Source of the DNA: Nitrospirota bacterium | GTDB lineage: Bacteria; Nitrospirota; UBA9217 | Assembly: GCA_963737155.1 (NCBI GenBank) | Contig: CAVTRN010000001.1 | Coordinates: 800,001-864,000, forward strand | Length of the DNA: 64,000 nucleotides | Direction: 5' to 3' | Shown here: positions 1,076 to 33,365 of the stretch, in pieces | How positions within the stretch are numbered: position 1 is the first letter of the stretch | Layout: each line of letters begins with the position of its first letter | Notes under the pieces: generated by a model | What the model saw: only the letters and a program-made list of their open reading frames with translations | The model's database searches: none | What the model was told of the DNA's origin: nothing | Translations under genes and position numbers: made by a program

Positions 1076-2326
1076 ATGCGGATTCACGTGGTCATCTTCT
1101 TAATGGTGGTTCTCTTCATTCCTTCAGTTTCACTTGCTGATGATTCCCCCATCACCCTAAAAGACCTGGAGCAGGAGGCGCTAAACAATAACCCCGAAAT
1201 CCTCATGACGACAAAGAAGGTTGAGTCCGCTAAAGATAAGAAATCCCTTGCTTCGGCCCTGCCGGACCCCATGATCGGCTACATGGTGCAGAATGTCGGA
1301 TCTCCGGGGCCGTGGACCGTCGGCGTGCAAGACATGAGCATGGAGGGCGTGGTCTTCTCGCAAGAGATCCCATTTCCTGGCAAGCTGGGGACAAAAGGAC
1401 GCATTGCAGGTAAAGAAGAGGAACAGATAGAACAAGGAGCCCGCGAAACAAAGCTCGAAGTATTGAACAACCTAAGGTCAGCGTACTATGAATACTTTCT
1501 TGCGTTTAAATCCGCTGCGATTTTAGATCAGACCAAGGATCTCTTGAAAGATTTTCAGCATATTGCCGAAACACGCTATGCGACAGGCCAGGGAATTCAG
1601 CAAGATGTCATACGCGCCCAGCTTGAGGTCTCCTCGATCATGGACAGGCTTGCCGAAGAGGAACAAAAAAAAGAAGCACAAGCGGCGGTCATTAACAGCC
1701 TCATAGGCCGCAATCCGTTTGCGCCACTTGGCAGGCCTGATGAACTTCCCAGGACGACACCCGCCATCACAATCGACGAAATGGCCACCATGGCGATTGA
1801 GCATTCCCCGATGCTGCAAGGGACGAAACGGATGGTGGAGCAAAACAGGGAAGAGCTTTCCCTGAGTCGCAGGGAATACCTGCCGGACATGGTGGTCTCA
1901 GGCGGGTGGTTTACCCGGGGAGAAAAAACAGATGTATGGCAGGCAAGTGTGATGTTCAAAATTCCGCTCTACTTTTGGAATAAGTCAACGGGTGTGAAGG
2001 CCGCGTCAGCCGATCTCAGCGCCACGCGCTACGAATACGACGCTGAACGACTCGCGACGCTTGCCCGGGTGCGCGACCTCTATTCCATGGTGAAGACCGC
2101 GGAGCACCACATCCAGCTCTATGAGGCAGGGATTATTCCGCAGGCGAAGATGTCGCTTCAGTCTGCAACAACGAATTATCAAGTAGGGAAAACCGATTTC
2201 ATGTCGCTGCTAGAAAGCGAAAATATGCTCTTGAAGTATCAACTCATGGAGCAGGAGGAGCTCGTGAACCTGAACAAGACCATGTCCATGCTCGGCGAGA
2301 TAACGGGAGAAGAGCATGAAAATTAA
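1076..2326 (+). CDS. cusC: TolC-family outer membrane efflux protein (CusC-like)
   Basis: Signal peptide; OEP features (LPDPMI, QEIPFPGK, YQVGKTDF); RBS GGAGG before ATG 1076; first gene of RND operon. Confidence 0.85.
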   Translation: MRIHVVIFLMVVLFIPSVSLADDSPITLKDLEQEALNNNPEILMTTKKVESAKDKKSLASALPDPMIGYMVQNVGSPGPWTVGVQDMSMEGVVFSQEIPFPGKLGTKGRIAGKEEEQIEQGARETKLEVLNNLRSAYYEYFLAFKSAAILDQTKDLLKDFQHIAETRYATGQGIQQDVIRAQLEVSSIMDRLAEEEQKKEAQAAVINSLIGRNPFAPLGRPDELPRTTPAITIDEMATMAIEHSPMLQGTKRMVEQNREELSLSRREYLPDMVVSGGWFTRGEKTDVWQASVMFKIPLYFWNKSTGVKAASADLSATRYEYDAERLATLARVRDLYSMVKTAEHHIQLYEAGIIPQAKMSLQSATTNYQVGKTDFMSLLESENMLLKYQLMEQEELVNLNKTMSMLGEITGEEHEN

Positions 2327-3527
2327 GGATTGCTGGATGTTTCGCAAACGAAACGGGGGCCAAGCCAGCTGCCGGCGGGGAAAAGGATCGTCCATTCTTG
2401 CGGTATTTGGTGCCGCATGCGCTTTGTTTTTTATGAGCCTTACAGTGTCGGCCCAGGAGCACGCTGGCCACTCCGGACAACCATCGGGCGGCCAGGAACG
2501 GAATGCTGAAAGTGTGAAACAAGAGAATCCTCCCTTTATTACGATCAGTCCGGACAAGATCCAGCTCATCGGCGTGCGCACAACTGTTGCGGACTACCGA
2601 TCGCCGGACAAACAGATCCGCACAGTGGGCAAGATTGAGCCTGACGAGACCCGTCTCGCCTTCGTGAACACCAAGATCTCTGGCTGGGTGAAGAAGCTCT
2701 ACGTCGACTACACCGGCAAGGAGGTCGTGAAAGGCCAACCGCTGCTGTCGCTTTACAGTCCTGATCTCGTTACGGCACAGGAAGAATACCTTCTCGCGCT
2801 CCGGTCCGCCGGTTACGGCAAACATGAGACGGGTGACATGAAGGAGCTGGAAACTTCTCGCAACGAACTCCTTGAGTCCGCCAAACGACGACTACTACTG
2901 TGGGACATCACGGAAGCGCAGATTGCCGAACTTGGGAAAACCGGAAAACCCCAGACTGAGATGATCATCGAAGCACCCCTCAACGGGATTGTACTCGAAA
3001 AGATGGTGCTCGAAGGAGGCTATATTACGCCAGGCACGAACCTTTATAAAATAGCCGACCTTTCGTCGATCTGGATCATTGCCGATATCTACGAATATGA
3101 AGTACCTTTGGTGAAAGTAGGCCAGACCGCACTGGTGACCTTGCCGTACTATCCTGGCCAGCGCTATCGTGCAACCTTAAATTATATCTATCCGTCCTTG
3201 GATCCCGTTAGCCGGACAGTCAAGGTGCGGTTGTCCATGAAAAATCCCGGACTCATGCTGAAACCCGAAATGTTTGCAAATGTCCAGATCATGGTTTCCA
3301 CGGGCTCAAAACTGGTGATCCCACGCGAGGCAGTGATTGATTCGGGCAGGCGCCAGATCGTTTATGTCGAAAAAAAGGCGGGGGTGTACGAGATGCGCGA
3401 CGTGACCCTCGGGCAGCGTGGCGAGGATTATGTAGAAGTCCTGAAGGGCATTAAAAAAGGGGAGCGCATCGTTACTTCTGGCAATTTTCTCATCGATTCG
3501 GAGAGCCAGTTGAGGTTGGGGCAATAG
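2316..3527 (+). CDS. cusB: RND efflux periplasmic adaptor subunit (CusB-like)
   Basis: GWVKKLYVDYTG, YSPDLVTAQEEYL, LKPEMF, SGNFLIDSES motifs; overlaps cusC stop. Confidence 0.9.
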   Translation: MKIKDCWMFRKRNGGQASCRRGKGSSILAVFGAACALFFMSLTVSAQEHAGHSGQPSGGQERNAESVKQENPPFITISPDKIQLIGVRTTVADYRSPDKQIRTVGKIEPDETRLAFVNTKISGWVKKLYVDYTGKEVVKGQPLLSLYSPDLVTAQEEYLLALRSAGYGKHETGDMKELETSRNELLESAKRRLLLWDITEAQIAELGKTGKPQTEMIIEAPLNGIVLEKMVLEGGYITPGTNLYKIADLSSIWIIADIYEYEVPLVKVGQTALVTLPYYPGQRYRATLNYIYPSLDPVSRTVKVRLSMKNPGLMLKPEMFANVQIMVSTGSKLVIPREAVIDSGRRQIVYVEKKAGVYEMRDVTLGQRGEDYVEVLKGIKKGERIVTSGNFLIDSESQLRLGQ

Positions 3528-3631
3528 AATTCCTTATTGGAGTTTGCCAAATAGGTTGAGATAACAATAAAAGATGTAGAAATAACATTTCATGCGCAAT
3601 CAGATTGCAGAAATCGACGATCAGGTAACTT

Positions 3632-6600
3632 ATGCTGTCCAAAATCATAGAGTTTTCAGCTCGCAATAAATTTATCGTTTTACTCCTCGTAGGGTTCCTT
3701 ACCCTGTGGGGGATATGGGCAGTGTATAATACACCGCTTGACGCTATTCCTGACCTTTCGGACGTGCAGGTGATTGTGTACACTAATTGGGCGGGCAGGA
3801 GTCCGGATCTCGTTGAGGACCAGATCACCTATCCCATCGTCTCGACGCTGCTCGCGGCACCCAAAGTGCGCGTAGTCCGCGGAAAATCCTTTCTCGGCAC
3901 ATCCTTCGTCTATGTGATCTTTGAAGACGGCACTGACATCTACTGGGCAAGAAGCCGGGTGCTCGAATATCTCCAGGGCGTCCAAGGCAAACTGCCCGCG
4001 GGTGTGACTCCGCAGCTCGGTCCTGACGCAACTGGTGTGGGATGGGGGTTCCAGTATGCCCTGGAGGATGAAAGCGGAAAACACGACCTTTCCCAACTCC
4101 GATCACTTCAGGACTGGACCCTCAAGTATGCAATTGAATCAGTGCCCGGCGTTTCTGAGGTGGCGAGTATTGGCGGGTTTGTGAAACAATACCAGATCGC
4201 CGTGGATCCGAACCGGCTCGCGGCGTATAAGCTTCCACTGGCTAAGGTCATTGACGCCGTTATACGGAGTAACCGCGACGTGGAAGGCAGGGTCGTGGAA
4301 TGGTCCGGAAGGGAGTATATGGTACGCGGCCGCGGCTACATCCATGACAAGTCAGACATCGAGAAGATCGCCGTGGGCACTAACGAGCAAGGAACGCCCA
4401 TTTTGCTCAGCGATGTCAGCCAGGTCCAGCTCGGCCCGGAGATCCGGCGCGGTACCTCTGATCTGGACGGAAAAGGCGAGACCGTGGGCGGCATTGTTGT
4501 GGTCCGCTTCGGGGAGAACGTCCTCAACGTGATCGATCGGGTAAAAGCAAAGATTAAAGAGTTACAGCCCTCCCTGCCCGAAGGGGTCAAGATCACAACA
4601 ACCTACGACCGATCCGAGCTTATCCACGGCTCCGTGGACACTCTCCGCGAAGAAGTAATAAAACTTGGCATTGCCGTAGGCGTGGTTTGCATCGTTTTTC
4701 TCTTCCATCTTCCGAGCGCTCTCGTTGTTATTTTGACCTTGCCCGTGGCGATCCTGATCTCCTTTATCTGCATGTATTATCTCAAGATCAGTTCGAACAT
4801 CATGAGCCTGGGCGGCATCGCCATAGCCATAGGCGCTATGGTTGACGCCTCTATTATCATGGTCGAGAACGCGCATAAAAAGCTTGAAGAATGGGAGAAG
4901 GGCGGGATGGTCCACGGCTCGCGCGTCGATGTGATCATCAACGCTGCAAAAGAGGTCGGACCATCTCTCTTTTTTTCGCTCCTGGTGATCACGGTCGGTT
5001 TTTTGCCGATCTTCACCCTTGAGGAACAGGCAGGCAGACTGTTCAAACCCTTGGCGTACACCAAGACTTTTTCCATGCTTTTTGCGAGCTTTCTCGCGAT
5101 CACGCTGACGCCGGTCTTGATGACGCTTTTCATCAGGGGAAGGATCAGGCATGAGGACAACAATCCGATCAGTCATGTACTCACAAAAATTTACCACCCT
5201 GTTGCGGCCTTCGCACTCCGGTACCGGAAGTTCGTCATCATCGCAGCGATCATCATTGTTCTCATCACGGTTTTTCCTTTTACCAAACTGGGTTCGGAGT
5301 TTATGCCTCCGCTGTACGAGGGCACGCTTCTGTTCATGCCGTCATCAGTGCCCGGCGCCTCCATAACGACCATGAGCGGGGTGCTCCAGGCGGAGGACCG
5401 CATCATCAAAGAGTTCCCCGAGGTGGAGCACGTTTTCGGCAAAGCAGGCAGGGCCGAGACGTCGACCGATCCTGCGCCACTCGAGATGGTCGAGACCAAT
5501 GTGACTTTAAAGCCGATGAGCCAGTGGCGACCGCAGTACAAAAAATGGGAAGACCTCCGCGATGACATGGACAATGCCCTCACCATGCCAGGCGTGGCAA
5601 ACACCTGGACCATGCCGATCATCGGCAGGATTGACATGCTCGCGACGGGCATCCGGACGCCCTTGGGCATCAAGATATTTGGCCCCCATCTCGATGGAAT
5701 AGAACGCATTGGCCTGGATCTGGAACAGACTCTTCGCACCGTCTCCGGTACGCGCAGCGTCTACGCAGAGCGGGCCAACACGGGCTACTTTCTCGATTTC
5801 GATATCAACCGCGACGAAATCGGCAGATACGGCCTAACGGTCGAGGACGTGCAAGAAGTGATTGAGTCTGCCATCGGTGGCATGGACCTGACGACAACGG
5901 TCGAGGGCCGGGAGAGGTATCCCGTAAACATCCGCTACGGCCGGGAACTCCGGAATAATATCGAGGATCTCAAACAAGTGCTTGTACCGACGAGTGGTGG
6001 CGCCCAGGTCCCGTTGGGTCAGCTTGCGGACATCAAGGTGACGCGTGGCCCCGCTATGATCCAGAGTGAGGGTGGGATGCTGACTTCCGCGGTTACGCTA
6101 GGCATTGAAGGAAGTGATTATGGCGGCTACGTGGAGAGGGCCAACAGGGCAATTGCTGAAAAGATGAAGATCCCTCCAGGATACACAATCCAGTGGAGCG
6201 GTCAGTACGAATACATGGAGAATGTCAAAGCCAAACTCTTCTTCGTGATTCCGCTCACGCTGCTGATCATTGTGGTGCTGATTTATCTCAACACGGAATC
6301 GCTCACCAAGACTATGATTGTGCTGCTGGCAGTCCCCTTTTCGCTTGTGGGCACGGTCTGGTTCCTCTATCTCCTTGGCTACCACCTGAGCGCCGCGGTT
6401 TGGGTCGGCGTGATCGCCCTGGCGGGCCTCGACGCGGAGACTGGAATTGTGATGTTGCTTTATCTTGATTTGTCATATAACCGGTGGCATCAGGAAGGAA
6501 GGATCAATGCTCCCCAGGACATCGAGGACTCGGTGATGGAAGGAGCGGTGAAGAGAATCAGGCCAAAGATCATGACGGTGTCGGTAATCCTCGCGGGCCT

Positions 6601-6772
6601 CGTTCCGATCATGTTCTCGAGCGGCACCGGCGCGGACGTTATGAAGCGGATCGCAGCACCTATGATCGGCGGCGTGGTGACATCGACGATATTAGAATTG
6701 ATCATTTATCCCGCGATTTACGTGATCTGGAAGGAAAGAGAGCTGAGAAGGGCGGTAGACGGCCGTCTGTAA
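3632..6772 (+). CDS. cusA: CusA/CzcA heavy-metal efflux RND transporter (Cu/Ag type)
   Basis: 1046 aa; DAIPDLSDVQV, GPDATGVGW, FMPPLYEG, DPAPLEM, RIDMLATG motifs typical of CusA. Confidence 0.93.
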   Translation: MLSKIIEFSARNKFIVLLLVGFLTLWGIWAVYNTPLDAIPDLSDVQVIVYTNWAGRSPDLVEDQITYPIVSTLLAAPKVRVVRGKSFLGTSFVYVIFEDGTDIYWARSRVLEYLQGVQGKLPAGVTPQLGPDATGVGWGFQYALEDESGKHDLSQLRSLQDWTLKYAIESVPGVSEVASIGGFVKQYQIAVDPNRLAAYKLPLAKVIDAVIRSNRDVEGRVVEWSGREYMVRGRGYIHDKSDIEKIAVGTNEQGTPILLSDVSQVQLGPEIRRGTSDLDGKGETVGGIVVVRFGENVLNVIDRVKAKIKELQPSLPEGVKITTTYDRSELIHGSVDTLREEVIKLGIAVGVVCIVFLFHLPSALVVILTLPVAILISFICMYYLKISSNIMSLGGIAIAIGAMVDASIIMVENAHKKLEEWEKGGMVHGSRVDVIINAAKEVGPSLFFSLLVITVGFLPIFTLEEQAGRLFKPLAYTKTFSMLFASFLAITLTPVLMTLFIRGRIRHEDNNPISHVLTKIYHPVAAFALRYRKFVIIAAIIIVLITVFPFTKLGSEFMPPLYEGTLLFMPSSVPGASITTMSGVLQAEDRIIKEFPEVEHVFGKAGRAETSTDPAPLEMVETNVTLKPMSQWRPQYKKWEDLRDDMDNALTMPGVANTWTMPIIGRIDMLATGIRTPLGIKIFGPHLDGIERIGLDLEQTLRTVSGTRSVYAERANTGYFLDFDINRDEIGRYGLTVEDVQEVIESAIGGMDLTTTVEGRERYPVNIRYGRELRNNIEDLKQVLVPTSGGAQVPLGQLADIKVTRGPAMIQSEGGMLTSAVTLGIEGSDYGGYVERANRAIAEKMKIPPGYTIQWSGQYEYMENVKAKLFFVIPLTLLIIVVLIYLNTESLTKTMIVLLAVPFSLVGTVWFLYLLGYHLSAAVWVGVIALAGLDAETGIVMLLYLDLSYNRWHQEGRINAPQDIEDSVMEGAVKRIRPKIMTVSVILAGLVPIMFSSGTGADVMKRIAAPMIGGVVTSTILELIIYPAIYVIWKERELRRAVDGRL

Positions 6773-6984
6773 AGAGGATGCTGAATGCGCAGGAGAGAAT
6801 AAACCGGAGAAGGTCTGAGAATCAGGTGTCGTTGAATCCTGTAATTGTTCCCTTTGCTTTGTCTTTGGAACAGTGTCATAGCGTATCAAGTAGTCGCAGT
6901 TTACGCTTTTTGGCCTTCATCCCATCTTGTGAAGCGGCTAGAATCCACCGGTATCGCACAAAACAGATCTACAGGAGAGACTTC

Positions 6985-7290
6985 ATGGACCGGAAGCGTT
7001 TATTTACCTATATCTCAGGACCGGTCGACCAGACACTGCTTCTGCGTTATGAATACTTAACGGCAGAAAACAGCATTTTACGGCATCAATTCAAATGCCG
7101 CCTCCGGCTTACCGATGGCGAGCGTAAAACTTTGCTGAGATCGGAAAACGCTTGGGGAAGAAAGTGTCAGAAGAGGTCGCCAATAGTGTCAAGCCTGAGA
7201 CCATTTTGGCGTGGCGCCCGATCTGATCGCCTGCATGTTTGGCGGTTCCAAAACAGGGCCGCACGGGGCAGGCCCAAGATAGAAGCGAAA
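6985..7290 (+). pseudogene. Transposase/integrase-core N-terminal remnant
   Basis: MDRKRLFTYISGPVDQTLLLRYEYLTAENSILRHQ..RLRLTDGERKTL resembles N-termini of integrase-core transposases; frameshifts and truncates. Confidence 0.6.
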
Positions 7291-27971: not shown

Positions 27972-29242
27972 ATGAACTGCATTAATGATATCAGACTTGA
28001 GCAGTTCCATCAACTGAAGAACGAGATTCGCAGTTCTGCGGAGTATTTGGTCGTCGGTTTGGACATTGCCAAGGAGAAACACAATGCTTTCTTCGGTACA
28101 GCAAACGGTAAAACACTGCACAGGGGAATGTCCTTTGATAATACGTTAAAGGTTTTCGCAAGCTGCTTACGCAGGTAGAGGCACTCAAGACGCAATATGG
28201 TCTGCCGAAGGTGGTCTTTGGCATGGAGCCGACGGCTAATTACCATAAACCCTTGGCGGAACATCTCATAAAGTACAGCCACATGGTTGTTCTGGTATCT
28301 ATCGCATCGACAGCAAAGAACCGGGAGCTTTTGGACGGCCGATGGGACAAGCATGACACCAAGGATGCGGCGAACGTTGCTGACCTTGTCGCCCAAGGGA
28401 AATGCCTGTACTACGACTTTCCGGAAGCAGCTATACGTAATATGAGGGGCCTCCTTTCGTTCAAGAAGCGGCTCACGAAAGAAGAGCATGCACTGCAGGT
28501 CCGCATCCGCAATCAGCTGCTCGCACAGTACTTCCCGGAGATGGACCGCCATTTTCGCTCAGCAGTGAGCCTGGCCGTGATTCGGACCTGTCTTGATCCA
28601 TCGTTGATTGTTGGGATGGAATACGACGAGTTTTGCCGGACCGTAGCGCCAGGGAGGGTGAACTTTAGACAACAGAGTCTGCTCCAGCAGATCTGGCAAC
28701 TAGCTCACAAGTCTATCGGTTGTCGGGTAGATGAAACCGTATTGTTTGAAGCGCAAACGATGGTTCAGAGCCTCCACCATGTGCGGGAGACGATTAAAGC
28801 CGTTGATGATAAAACAAAGGATCTCTGTTTACCGTATCCCGAATACGCCTGTCTTTTAAGCATCCCGGGCTTTGGTCCAGATGTTTCTTCCACTGTATTG
28901 AGCGCGCTCGGCAATCCGTACTGGTTTTCCTGCAGTAAGCAGGTTCTAAAGATGGCCGGTTATGATTTGTGTGCTGATCGGAGCGGTAAAACAATATCAA
29001 ATGCCGTTCCGGTTATTTCCAAGATAGGCAAGGTTGGTCTGCGATCCGCCCTTTATCAGGCGGCGGTTATCGCTTCCAACAGCAATACTTTATTCATGGC
29101 CTATTACACCGATAAGCTTAAAGATCGAAGTTGGGAGAAAGGAATCGGAACCAAAATGCGGGTGAAGCTCGCCGCGAAACTCTTGATCGTTGCCTGGACA
29201 CTGATGAAGAAGAAAGAGGGCCTGGTTGGCCAGGGGTCATAA
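27972..29242 (+). mobile_element. IS110-family transposase, frameshifted near 28150
   Basis: VGLDIAKEKH, GMEPTANYH, DKHDTKDAAN, SIPGFG, DRSGK, VKLAAKLL. Confidence 0.82.
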
Positions 29243-29545
29243 ATTCAGATTCAAATATGCCATTATTTCGACTTCTGATAACTCGCGAGGTTCTTCCTTT
29301 AGTTGTTTAAGTTTATATTCTTAGCTTAATGTTTAAGCCTGTATCCGATAATATCTACCCATAAAATACATTACTTTTGTCCTTTTTCTAGCCGTATCTT
29401 TCCATATGCTTCTATGTATCGACTGATCGAGCGAATTACATGTTAACGAACGAATAGACAAATCCGGCCATTTGGAAGTTTTTAGGGCTCGATCAGAGCA
29501 GCCAGGTTCGCTATTAAATACCGCAGGAACACCCGTTTCTGCGTT

Positions 29546-29974: not shown

Positions 29975-31275
29975 CTTTTTCTCCTTTCAATTAAATGAAT
30001 GAGAACTCCACACGTATAGATGGCCCACATTCATCTATTGGTGGCAATCACTACTGGTCGGGGTCTGTGGAGCGAAGTAGATACCCCCTTAACAAAAAAT
30101 CACTGCTGCTTAAGTAAAACTCAACTTACCGCACCGGATTGTCAAAACAGCGCGTTTTTTTTGAACAGAGTAGTGTCGATTTATTGAAAACGCTGCATTT
30201 AATACCTTTTAACTTGCTATTCCCAATAACTTAAGGGAAAAGTGAAAGAAACCAAAGGTTACTTATTGAGAAATCAAACAAAATACCCTGTGTCTGTTTG
30301 CTGCGTGTGTTCATTTATTACGTCAAACTTTTATAAATCCTGATACAAACTGTCTAATCAATAGAACGTCTCTCTGAAAATTGGTCTATATATTACATGA
30401 ATAACTTTTGTATCTTATCGGAAAATACTAAAATAACTTTAATTCTTTGGGCGAAGTCTTATGGTAAAACAAAGTAATTTCCAGGCTTGCTTTATGAGTT
30501 TGCAAAATCAACCACATTCTCGGGATTTTAAAACAGGATGCGAAGCCCAGAGAACTAAGATCAACAAGAAAAAGATAATTTCTGTGTGAATTTTTTAGTC
30601 AAACCTCTTTTTGGAAGCTGTTATAGTTGCATTTCCTTTAAACATGTCTGACTACATTCTGTCGCGCCAGGTCAAGCCTGGGAGAGGTGAACGACCAGAA
30701 ACCGAAACCTTTCGTAGTGATTCTGTAGGCAACCAATCCTACCTGACAAAGCCTGGTCAGCAGTCAGAAGCGAGTCTTGCATGCGCATAGGTGACTATGT
30801 GTGTGAAGCGTAGACAGCTACTGCAAAAGCCGTGTCATTGAGCCCCGAAATAGCCTTGTGAGAGTTTTCGTTTTCAGAATGACGGGAACAGCATCGATCG
30901 TGCAGTACCGACCTTACATGATCGGTCCCACCGGGGTCAAAGAGCAGGGCAAATGTAGAGAAGGGTCATCCAGGAACCTGGGAGGTCTTGCCAACTCCGT
31001 CTTTGAAACACCGGTGGGGATACGGAACGAATAACTCCAGGCCTCAAATGTCCGCGCTGAGACGTGTGAGGAGGTGCTGAAGGGCACGAAACGAAACGAT
31101 CAGCGCGAAGGACGGTATCGCCAACTGAAGGAAACGAAAGACGGCGAGATGGGAAGCAAGATGTCGTAGCGCCCTCATAGTACCGGTGAAGCAGGGGAAT
31201 GAATCCCATCGGACCCTGTCGAGGTAAGGGGGGCGTCGTATTGTAGAATCGTTGAGGGGAAAGACAGAGGATGCG

Positions 31276-32970
31276 ATGGAATCCGGAAATACAGTCTACA
31301 CGAAACAGCAACGGATAGCAGAACTCGCGAGGATTCACCCTGATGTGAGTTTTACGTCTCTAGCCCACCATATTGATTTAGGGTGGCTCTATGAAGCATT
31401 CGGGCGAACGCGAAAGGACGGAGCACCGGGAATAGATAAGCAGACCGCAGAAGAGTATGAGAAGGAGTTGAATGCGAATTTGCGGTCACTTCTGGAACGT
31501 GCCAAGTCGGGAAAATACGTCGCGCCGCCGGTGTTGCGGGCGCATATCCCGAAAGACCCGGCGAAGAATGAAACCCGTCCTATCGGTATACCGACGTTCG
31601 AGAATAAGGTGCTTCAGAGAGCTTGGCAGATGGTGCTGGAGCCATTATACGAACAGAAATTTCTGGACTGCTCATATGGGTTCCGGACGGGGCGTTCGGC
31701 CCACGACGCGCTGCAATCGTTGTGGACGCAGATGATGGACGTAGGCGGATGTTGGATCATCGATTTGGATATTCGGAATTTTTTCGATACGATGGTTCAC
31801 GAACACATCAGGAAAATTCTCAAGAGGCGGGTGAGTGACGGAGTAATAACGAGACTCATAGGGAAGTGGTTAAGGGCCGGTGTATGGGAGGCAGGAAACA
31901 TCAGTTACCCAGAAAAGGGTACTCCTCAAGGGTCGTTATGAGAAGCTTCTCATAAGCCGCCTTATCAGAAGTAATATGTTATCCGAAGTAAACACTGTAA
32001 CCGCTTAATATCTAAGCATGTTATCTTTATTTACTTCTGATAATACGACAGGCCGAAGTATTTATGAGAGATTGAAGAACCGATCTCACTAATGCAATTA
32101 GGCCCGTGCAGATGCTGAGCTGAACGATAAAACGTTAGAAAAGGTGTGTTTCCTACTTTTTGCGACCGTATTGCTTAGCCAAGTAATCTCTATCACACAC
32201 AGTATTATCCGAAGTAAATGAAACGCAAACGTAACCGTATCAAGTGTTTGCAGCTTTTACTTCGCATAATGTGATACTTCTGATAAGGCGGCGTGATTTC
32301 CCCCATGCTGAGTAATATTTATCTTCATGAGGTGCTGGACATGTGGTTTGAGAAGGAAGTAAAACCGCGCCTCCGCGGTAAAGCGTTTCTGATTCGTTAC
32401 GCAGATGATGCAGTGTTGGGGTTTGCGTTTGAAGCAGATGCCCGGAAAGTGATGGAAGTCCTTCCGAAGCGGTTTGGCCGATATGGCCTGACGATCCACC
32501 CGGAGAAGACCCGCGTGGTGAGGTTCGTCAAGCCGGATAATACGAACTCGGGAGGCCACAGCCAGGACAAGGACAACACGTTCAACTTTCTAGGATTTAC
32601 TCACTACTGGGCAAAGACCCGTAAAGGTACAATGGTAATCAAGCGAAGTACCGAGAAGAACCGGTTCGCGCGAGCGCTCCTGAAGATCAAGGAGTGGTGC
32701 AGGATCAATCGGCACAACCCCCTGAAGGAGCAGCATAGGACGCTGAACCAGAAACTTCGAGGCCACTACGCCTATTACGGGATCACAGGCAACAGCAAGA
32801 TGGTGGGGAGTTTCTACCACAGGGTGAGGCGGCTGTGGCGCAAATGGCTACAGCGAAGGTCGTGCGATGGCAGTATCCCGTGGGAGAACTTCGAACTGCT
32901 TGAGAAAGTCTATCCACTGGCACCAGCGAGAATCGTTCACTCTGCATACTTACGCAAAGCTACAGCATGA
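31276..32970 (+). pseudogene. ltrA: Group II intron RT/maturase split by a 357-bp insertion
   Basis: APGID, RPIGIP, SYGFR, DIRNFFD, GTPQG | GVISPMLSNIYLH, RYADD, FLGF, domain X; removing 31932-32288 restores a 445-aa ORF. Confidence 0.9.
31932..32288. mobile_element. Non-coding mini element with RIT-like ends (20-bp palindrome, 37-bp IRs, six repeated boxes)
   Basis: Palindrome TTATGAGAAGCTTCTCATAA 31936-31955; IR 31956-31992 vs 32256-32292; AAGG repeated at both junctions; no ORF. Confidence 0.75.
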
Positions 32971-33365
32971 AGAACCGAATGCGTGAATTACGCACGTTCG
33001 GGTCTGTGGGGGGCTGGGGCAAGTGACTGCCCTGGCCTACCTGGCTAGCATTGTATTTTGTTATAAAGATTTCTGTCAGCAACTCCTTTCCAGAGCAGTT
33101 GAAATTTCCATTAGCTGCAAATTCACTTTTCAACTCGAAAGCCATACGGTAAAAAACTCAAGTACACTATTTTATGAGCTTTTATAACGTTATTTTTTCT
33201 CTTTTCGGATGATTTTTTGACAATACGGGAACATTCCTGAGAGGAGGATCATCCCCCAGGTAATTACAAAGCGCCATTACTTGCATGGATTTTATGTTTC
33301 AGTTATCAGTCAAAAGGTCCTTCGTAATATGGATCCAATCATTGACAACCCATCTCCCGTTGTTT

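Follow-up and report, generated by a model that had tools for sequence, protein, structure and literature searches.

How does a stretch of 357 bp without a gene of its own come to lie inside the reverse transcriptase (RT) gene of a group II intron, and what could have moved it there? The question is raised by a 64,000-nucleotide stretch of the genome of a Nitrospirota bacterium (assembly GCA_963737155.1, contig CAVTRN010000001.1, positions 800,001 to 864,000; this whole stretch is referred to here as the window, position 1 being its first letter), in which such an insert splits an intron RT gene at codons for Gln-Gly-Gly (Q-G-G). A first reading of the letters of the window (the original prediction) described the insert and took it for a gene-less relative of the RIT (recombinase-in-trio) elements. 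The observation is confirmed by the analysis reported here and the interpretation is supported: the insert is very probably a non-autonomous 'mini-RIT', produced by internal deletion from a clade of RIT elements that integrates at the Q-G-G codons of intron RTs.

An insert in the reverse transcriptase gene of a group II intron

The host of the insert occupies 30733–33045 of the window, on the forward strand, and is identified as a group II intron by the presence of both ribozyme domains and an RT/maturase open reading frame (ORF), with matches in Rfam and to the RVT_1 and GIIM profiles. The 5' part of the intron RNA (domains 1–4 model) is found at 30733–30946 (Rfam RF02005, 134.3 bits, E 8.1e-39) and domains 5–6, at the 3' end of the intron, at 32970–33045 (RF00029, E 5.5e-05, with a score of 39.2 bits that is just below the gathering score of 40). 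The RT gene is in two parts. The first (31252–31929, forward) ends in G-T-P-Q, the CAA codon being at 31927–31929; its ORF runs on to 31941, finishing EKGTPQGSL before the stop codon, and matches positions 1–123 of the 205 in the RVT_1 profile (E 5.4e-17). The second part (32293–32970, forward) begins V-I-S-P-M-L-S-N, contains the YADD motif and the maturase domain, and matches RVT_1 positions 125–204 of 205 plus GIIM. The frame picks up again after the insert at GGCGGC GTG ATT (G-G-V-I).

Removing 357 bp restores a single open frame of 453 codons from a TTG at 31252, or 445 amino acids from the first ATG, with YADD in place. The cut originally proposed, 31932–32288, does this, and cuts at 31930–32286 and 31936–32292 do it equally well, the boundary of the insert being ambiguous by a shared AAGG. 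The restored RT is identical at 402 of 453 aligned residues to an uninterrupted copy in a sister genome. The intron itself is present in a single copy in its own genome, and Rfam finds intron RNA solely outside the insert, which speaks against a nested intron fragment.

The insert consists of a 6-bp spacer, a 20-bp palindrome, a 6-bp inverted spacer and a body of 325 bp from box to box, its spacers and arms being given here as read on the forward strand. The left spacer, S_L (GGGTCG, 31930–31935), differs from the hexamer of the empty site described below, GGCGGC. The palindrome (31936–31955) is perfect over its 20 bp, as a repeat search bears out, and comprises two head-to-head half-boxes (31936–31945 and 31946–31955) with AAGCTT at the centre. 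Then comes the internal spacer, S_int (GCCGCC, 31956–31961), which is the reverse complement of the target hexamer, as judged from the sequence, its repeats and the junctions of relatives. Three boxes make up the left inverted-repeat arm (31962–32043), at 31962–31973 and 31979–31990 in forward and 32032–32043 in reverse orientation, and the right arm mirrors it with boxes at 32205–32216 (forward), 32258–32269 and 32275–32286 (both reverse). The right spacer, S_R (GGCGGC, 32287–32292), supplies the Gly-Gly codons of the RT and is identical to the empty-site hexamer.

The symmetry of this arrangement is close. At both ends the outer pair of boxes is spaced 17 bp start-to-start, with 41 bp to the inner, inverted box; box-family repeats recur at spacings of 17 and 226; and a 55-nt inverted repeat (31956–32010 and 32238–32292) is 80% complementary. 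A terminal inverted repeat with an abutting palindrome, a feature of RIT elements, is present. The window contains eight boxes with at most one mismatch where 0.45 would be expected, a number not attained in any of 100 shuffles. Six of the eight are inside the insert (31962, 31979, 32032(−), 32205, 32258(−) and 32275(−)), in the positions and with the mirror symmetry first described; five of these fit the proposed consensus, TTATC(A/C)GAAGTA, exactly, whilst that at 32258(−) has one mismatch, so that to this extent the description of six consensus boxes did not stand. The remaining two, at 29270 and 35021, carry one mismatch each and are at chance level (56 matches with at most one mismatch in the 4.8-Mb genome). 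Each half of the palindrome is a variant of the box, unlike the outer box that neighbours it. The core between the inner boxes (32044–32204, 161 bp) has no ORF of 40 or more amino acids wholly inside it, so the insert encodes no recombinase trio, and a promoter scan of 31850–32400 gave no sigma-70-like site.

Full-length relatives are RIT elements

A scan with the outer box pair (20 specified bases) gave 30 loci in 185,579 species genomes and 85 stretches in a metagenome collection, with no match in viral contigs. At many of the loci two inverted end matches lie ~3.4 kb apart and delimit elements of about 3.45 kb, and full-length examples have the boxes and the 17/41-bp spacing seen in the window (L005, L007, L029, L057, L077, L089, L113 and others). 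Recombinase-encoding elements with the same ends therefore exist, as the original prediction had anticipated. Full-length members have three ORFs (about 427, 339 and 350 amino acids) that lie in tandem and overlap. All of them match Phage_integrase (E 1e-22 to 1e-29) and two have SAM-like N-terminal domains; R-H...G-H...Y motifs can be read from the translations of all three. In the 427-residue RitA of L007, the SAM-like domain (residues 132–208) follows an N-terminal extension of ~130 amino acids. The sub-groups of Rit proteins are described, in the passage of the paper that deals with them, as having distinctive domain additions, RitA having two core-binding domains and RitC an extra C-terminal helix (PMC8138268).

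The RitA of L007 matches the RIT-rich megaplasmid pHG1 of Cupriavidus necator in 9 places; 95% of the protein aligns, at 36.8% identity (E 8e-68). In pHG1 three integrase genes are annotated in a row and are flanked by an inverted repeat with an abutting palindrome; the annotated trios of this plasmid and of a Bacillus sp. S3 plasmid both have short ORF overlaps. In the general description given in the 2012 analysis, a RIT measures about 3.5 kb and combines three recombinases with an inverted repeat and a palindrome (PMC3414803). Taken together, the trio, the inverted repeat, the palindrome and the likeness to pHG1 identify the full-length relatives as RIT elements as understood by Van Houdt et al. 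(2012).

These partners bear directly on whether the insert is RIT-derived at all. It might instead be a miniature inverted-repeat transposable element (MITE) that belongs to a transposase family of the DDE, HUH or serine kind, or a piece of a nested intron, or a product of chance, and in its favour such an origin has an anatomical resemblance to IS200/IS605 relics with a subterminal palindrome, to GG-flanked IS607 and to the multi-site ends of Tn7- and Mu-like elements. Every two-ended element recovered with these boxes, however, encodes tyrosine recombinases and nothing else; Rfam has no match inside the insert, and the box count is far above chance. An origin outside the RITs is in our view highly improbable. 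The ends do not belong to a DDE insertion sequence family, MITEs of the DDE, HUH and serine-transposase kinds are in effect ruled out by full-length partners that are tyrosine-recombinase trios, and the IS200/IS605 palindrome relic, IS607 and Tn7/Mu-like ends were dropped as candidates once the nature of these partners was clear.

A probable internal deletion derivative

Both ends of the window copy are homologous to the autonomous element and its interior is deleted. On the left, 137 bp (31956–32092, forward) are 87–88% identical by BLAST to the ritA-proximal ends of L113 (2–137) and L070 (664–799), the homology ending just before the ribosome-binding site and start codon of ritA. On the right, about 121–122 bp (32171–32292, forward) are 80–84% identical to the ritC-distal ends of L113 (3350–3470) and L095 (3247–3369); here the homology begins within the last ritC codons, of which a remnant is kept. 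The 78-bp centre (32093–32170) has no BLAST match to full-length RITs, both alignments lose homology in it, and it represents the deletion junction or filler. Judged by these alignments, the deletion appears to have removed ritA, ritB and ritC, beginning shortly before the ritA start and reaching as far as the final few codons of ritC. What the copy retains is every cis feature common to the full-length members: two three-box arms, the 17/41-bp spacing, the palindrome and the spacers. With its RIT-like ends and no ORF, it is the gene-less derivative that had been proposed.

It is not the only element of this kind. L069, which is 282 bp from box to box and lies inside an RT gene, is collinear through its centre with L063; the two have different RT flanks and carry the palindrome at opposite ends. 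Because they share an internal structure in two RT contexts and in both orientations, minis appear to move, and mobilisation in trans is probable for the class. Further minis, belonging to other sub-families, are L064, L050 and probably L055. Non-autonomous mini-RITs are new.

For the window copy in particular, we infer that it moved in trans as a mini, in-situ deletion of a full copy being equally possible. The latter history, in which a full-length RIT integrated here and later lost its genes, would make the insert a fossil that never moved as a mini, and we regard it as possible, if somewhat doubtful. The genomic context speaks for it. The 4.84-Mb genome contains neither a second copy of the insert nor a second box cluster, and no RIT trio: a search gave three single Xer-like loci at no more than 30.5% identity and no RitA match at E<=1e-25. 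There are accordingly no dispersed copies and no cognate autonomous partner in the same genome, and the window copy is stranded. Other copies of the mini were found neither in 60 relatives nor among the 400 further genomes sampled from the phylum, and the unmatched 78-bp centre fits an untidy deletion. On the other side, six boxes, a palindrome and spacers have survived at the exact spacing of the family, which a random deletion need not have spared, and the L069/L063 lineage has been placed in two RT contexts in both orientations. In addition, a contig from an independent sequencing run (X3) contains 31960–32253 of the mini with 2 differences, its flanks being out of view; in this run the mini is covered and the 5' half of the RT is without cover at 88% or higher likeness, an absence that is not evidence of another context. 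In a further run (X6) there is a loose end at window position 31931.

Empty sites and target specificity

Two uninterrupted versions of the intron define the target. In a contig from a soil run (X5), 31927 is followed directly by 32285, so that exactly 357 bp are missing, and 1 letter of 267 differs; in the sister species G001 an intron copy of 91% identity is uninterrupted and reads CAAGGCGGCGTGATTTCC. The empty site itself reads CAAGGCGGCGTG in both G001 and the X5 contig. The target hexamer is therefore GGCGGC, that is, the right spacer, and the window copy lies at its clade's own target with a precise empty site; uninterrupted copies were among the things that the original prediction had suggested looking for.

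For the relatives, element ends were oriented inward and their outward flanks classified, giving 133 ends, of which 118 are distinct. Twenty-three distinct ends have the palindrome preceded by G[TV]PQG[GSA], the 5' part of an RT, and 30 are palindrome-less and abut G[GSA]xxS[PAT], the 3' part. A palindrome combined with ...DE is seen at four ends and a palindrome-less end with DE... at eight; six have a palindrome and other targets, 41 are of other kinds (AT-rich chance matches and further sub-families) and at six the flank is too short. RT association thus accounts for 53 of the 118 distinct ends, drawn from 47 loci, the other 65 being ends with other targets, chance matches or short flanks. 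Not one of the 118 has a palindrome end facing an RT 3' part or a palindrome-less end facing an RT 5' part. Where the distance to the inner box could be evaluated (46 RT-associated ends), it is 41 bp in 40 cases, 42 bp in five and 40 bp in one.

The RT-associated loci come from Geobacteraceae, Desulfuromonadales, Pedobacter, Chitinophagaceae, alphaproteobacterial metagenome-assembled genomes (MAGs) and many metagenomes. In addition, the complete plasmid of an isolate, Bacillus sp. S3 (L132, NZ_CP039728.1), carries a trio that adjoins an annotated group II intron maturase gene. The suggestion that a conserved RT motif is the target is upheld by this tabulation, and a RIT clade with specificity for RT Q-G-G codons, as defined by the sites it occupies, is new.

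The same scans brought up RITs with other targets. A sub-family with boxes TTATG(G/A/T)GAAGTA and spacers GATGAA or GATGAG has the same palindrome architecture at the Walker-B 'hhhhDE' codons (L105 (104–2180), L011, L083, L111, L010, L014, L021, L024, L041, L062 and L065). In L105 the broken gene, which has the Walker A motif GSTGTGKT and lies behind a 516-amino-acid IstA-like ORF, is presumably an IS21-type istB, these names being assigned from the motifs. Further RIT-like ends combine the spacer-palindrome-spacer layout with other hexamers (such as CATTAT and TTGCCG) in L038, L066, L078, L086, L106 and L084/L117; in L038, L066 and L078 the palindrome centre is GAGCTC, not AAGCTT. These hint that each RIT sub-family may have a 6-bp target of its own.

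Junctions, spacers and the side of the palindrome

Complete junctions have a common structure. On one side they run from the 5' part of the target through CAR, the 6-bp S_L, two 10-bp half-boxes, the 6-bp S_int and an outer box into the body, and on the far side from an outer box through the 6-bp S_R into the 3' part of the target. S_int approximates the reverse complement of the spacer S, which is GGNGGN in the RT clade and GGNTCN in RTs of the Q-G-S type. In several copies (L019, L025, L057 and L079) the palindrome is perfect over 32 bp, taking in S_L on one side and S_int on the other. S_int, one palindrome half and the outer box make up a second, inverted core-like site.

The palindrome is invariably on the 5' side of the target, whilst relative to the rit genes it can be on either side: it adjoins the ritA end in L057/L077, L060/L118, L079/L114, the window copy and L069, and the ritC end in L089, L113, L095, L074, L115, L054, L098, L108 and L063.

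The left spacer of the window copy does not agree with the target hexamer, GGGTCG and GGCGGC differing at 4 of 6 positions. GGGTCG reads Gly-Ser, as in the Q-G-S-type RTs occupied by L025, L071 and L098. Given that it is unlike the empty-site hexamer, we infer that it was brought in with the element from its previous site, in the manner of a coupling sequence; later mutation would be the alternative. A parallel is offered by the coupling sequences of Tn916-type elements.

A different arrangement is found in full-length RITs that have no palindrome and lie between two RT 3' halves, both of which read outward (L005/L053, L007, L067/L076 and the L132 plasmid). As one of these is on the complete plasmid of an isolate, the arrangement is not merely an artefact of assembly. 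In L007 the inverted flanks (2448–3023 and 6417–6992) are 95% identical over 576 nt. Elements of this arrangement suggest RIT-mediated inversion or a rearrangement between intron copies.

A model for RIT integration

A 6-bp spacer between inverted arms of 10–12 bp is the classical core site of tyrosine recombinases, as in loxP and dif. Applied to the junctions above, this points to the following scheme. The free form of the element would be a circle, in which spacer, palindrome and inverted spacer connect the two arms. The circle junction would then be a two-fold symmetric region containing two lox/dif-like core sites that share the palindrome; in each, a 12-bp outer box and one 10-bp half of the palindrome would enclose a 6-bp spacer. 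Strand exchange by the Rit recombinases would take place across this 6-bp spacer, with the GGNGGN hexamer of an RT gene as partner. Use of either site would place the palindrome 5' of the target, leave the body in an arbitrary orientation and keep an intact inverted site inside the element. If the recombinases tolerate wobble in the spacer, an element may carry the hexamer of its last site, which would give the window copy its GGGTCG on the left and the target hexamer GGCGGC on the right. Secondary recombination of the leftover internal site with a second RT gene could yield the palindrome-less elements that lie between RT 3' halves.

How well does this agree with what is known of RIT DNA? A mobilome study, in the part that concerns RITs, reports an enrichment of RIT regions in DNA treated with exonuclease and an inability to map circle junctions, and suggests hairpin intermediates (PMC5737581). 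A symmetric junction would read as an integrated palindrome end, so that circle junctions would be unmappable even though RIT DNA is protected from exonuclease. The hairpin suggestion can be taken further: a reaction like that of telomere resolvases at the axis of the palindrome could produce a linear, hairpin-capped or fold-back element and not a circle. Besides the exonuclease-resistant DNA and the lack of mapped circle junctions in that study, this would suit the perfect 32-bp palindrome of many copies (L019, L025, L057 and L079 among them) and the fact that the element, as single-stranded DNA, folds far better than shuffled sequences (z = −7.15). Unmapped circle junctions are, however, equally expected of a symmetric circle; the palindrome half differs from the adjacent outer box, so it is no copy made by opening a hairpin; and a 6-bp spacer with inverted arms of 10–12 bp is, as in loxP and dif, the geometry of a tyrosine-recombinase core. 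We consider a hairpin route unlikely.

The circle model can be widened into a general, and tentative, view of these elements, for which the prospects seem to us not far from even. RITs would be circles that integrate site-specifically by a two-fold symmetric 'double-lox' region, in which the 6-bp spacer sets the target; clades would be tuned to invariant codons in the genes of other mobile elements, to GGNGGN (the Gly-Gly of RT motif 4 in group II introns) and to GATGAA (the Walker-B Asp-Glu of IS21 istB); the internal site would drive inversions between copies of the host elements; and the elements would spawn gene-less minis, which would be the first MITE-like derivatives of a tyrosine-recombinase transposon.

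Several points weigh against our reading of the insert and its mode of integration. Neither a circle junction nor an excision product nor transposition has been observed for any member, and the mechanism is read from static junctions. Many tyrosine recombinases would not tolerate a spacer mismatch of 4 in 6, and the left hexamer could be the product of later mutation. For elements that lack the palindrome and have two RT 3' halves, the model has no explanation other than a secondary recombination of the internal site with another RT gene. This predicts a reciprocal product, in which a palindrome would stand alone between two 5' halves of RT genes; a search of the Bacillus plasmid, five MAGs, the recovered loci and the window's own genome, a set that had been chosen for box pairs and is weak as a negative, did not find it. 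Most relatives are on fragmented metagenome contigs, on which the pairing of flanks can be unreliable. The window copy, alone in its genome and not found in the other 400 phylum genomes sampled, gives no sign of MITE-like amplification. Finally, our search found no literature linking RIT elements with group II introns; Ricker et al. (2013) was outside it and may hold part of the end anatomy.

Comparison with known elements

The classical RITs of Cupriavidus metallidurans CH34 and C. necator pHG1 (Van Houdt 2009/2012) and the relatives described here are alike in their size of ~3.45 kb, the tandem overlapping ritA-ritB-ritC genes, the inverted repeats and the palindrome. They differ from the present clade in that the latter has a defined RT Q-G-G target and a three-box arm, and from the window element in that it is gene-less. 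In Table 1 of a 2023 review, RIT target specificity, empty site and movement are entered as 'NT', and the accompanying account states that RIT transposition has never been reproduced (PMC10214605). The 2012 analysis, where it treats the element ends, describes an inverted repeat and palindrome and no convincing binding sites (PMC3414803). The symmetric double core-site model proposed above for RITs would likewise be new.

Tn554, SE and GInt also have several tyrosine recombinases per element and insert site-specifically. According to the same review's entries for SE and Tn554, these two carry a 6-bp stretch over from the donor site (PMC10214605), which resembles the foreign left hexamer of the window copy. 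Unlike the RIT clade, all three are without box-bearing terminal inverted repeats and a palindrome, and they have other accessory proteins (Tfp/Srap, TnpC).

MITEs share with the window element their small size, the absence of genes, the retention of the ends of an autonomous relative and a presumed mobilisation in trans. In contrast to the MITEs of DDE insertion sequences, which end in inverted terminal repeats of the DDE type, it has recombinase core and accessory sites at its ends; a fixed target-site duplication is absent, and the genome has one copy.

With loxP/Cre and dif/XerCD the clade has in common two inverted arms of 10–12 bp around a 6-bp crossover spacer. It differs in having two mirror-image sites that share a palindrome, each backed by two further boxes, and in that the arms of its target, the GTPQ and VISP codons, are not box-like.

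RIT elements are widespread (712 plasmid records match RitA), and three things can now be supplied for them: a defined target, some 12 bp long, that surrounds the Q-G-G codons of the RT; cis sites mapped in full, with three boxes per arm, a palindrome and 6-bp spacers; and, in the window insert, a natural minimal substrate of 357 bp. Together these make the mechanism of RITs directly testable. The insert is also a case of layered parasitism, a recombinase element inside the gene that gives a retroelement its mobility. That it might hitch-hike on the intron, or switch it off reversibly, is speculation.

Other mobile elements in the intron and its surroundings

In the sister species G001, at least five RIT trios of other sub-families are present (L143–L147), with proteins 30–40% identical to those of L007. 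No cluster of TTAT..GAAG boxes occurs in these stretches, L143 having a single isolated match and L144–L147 none.

The same genome contains a second interrupted form of the intron. In L129 (G001:C1:1030800-1035300) an unrelated insert of ~2.25 kb (~1310–3562) interrupts a 97–98% identical intron RT after GTGATT, at a point 8 bp downstream of the RIT site. This insert encodes a 555-amino-acid large serine recombinase (Resolvase, Recombinase and Zn_ribbon_recom domains) and a 112-amino-acid ORF, and the G-G-V-I codons are mimicked at its right end. A second family of recombinases thus targets this RT motif. In L131 (G009:C10:80000-84800), from another genome of the genus, the RT ORF is split further upstream, after RKFF, by a nested group II intron with an RT of its own (~1095–3677), and the Q-G-G site of G009 is empty. 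Among the relatives searched, then, three mobile elements unrelated to one another have inserted into this RT ORF.

In the window, an IS110-family transposase ORF is located 1.5 kb upstream of the intron (28211–29242, forward). The chance-level box match at 29270 lies beside this gene and no link is drawn between them. The ORF matches Transposase_20 and, partially, DEDD_Tnp_IS110 (from profile position 50 of 155), and may be truncated at its N-terminus.

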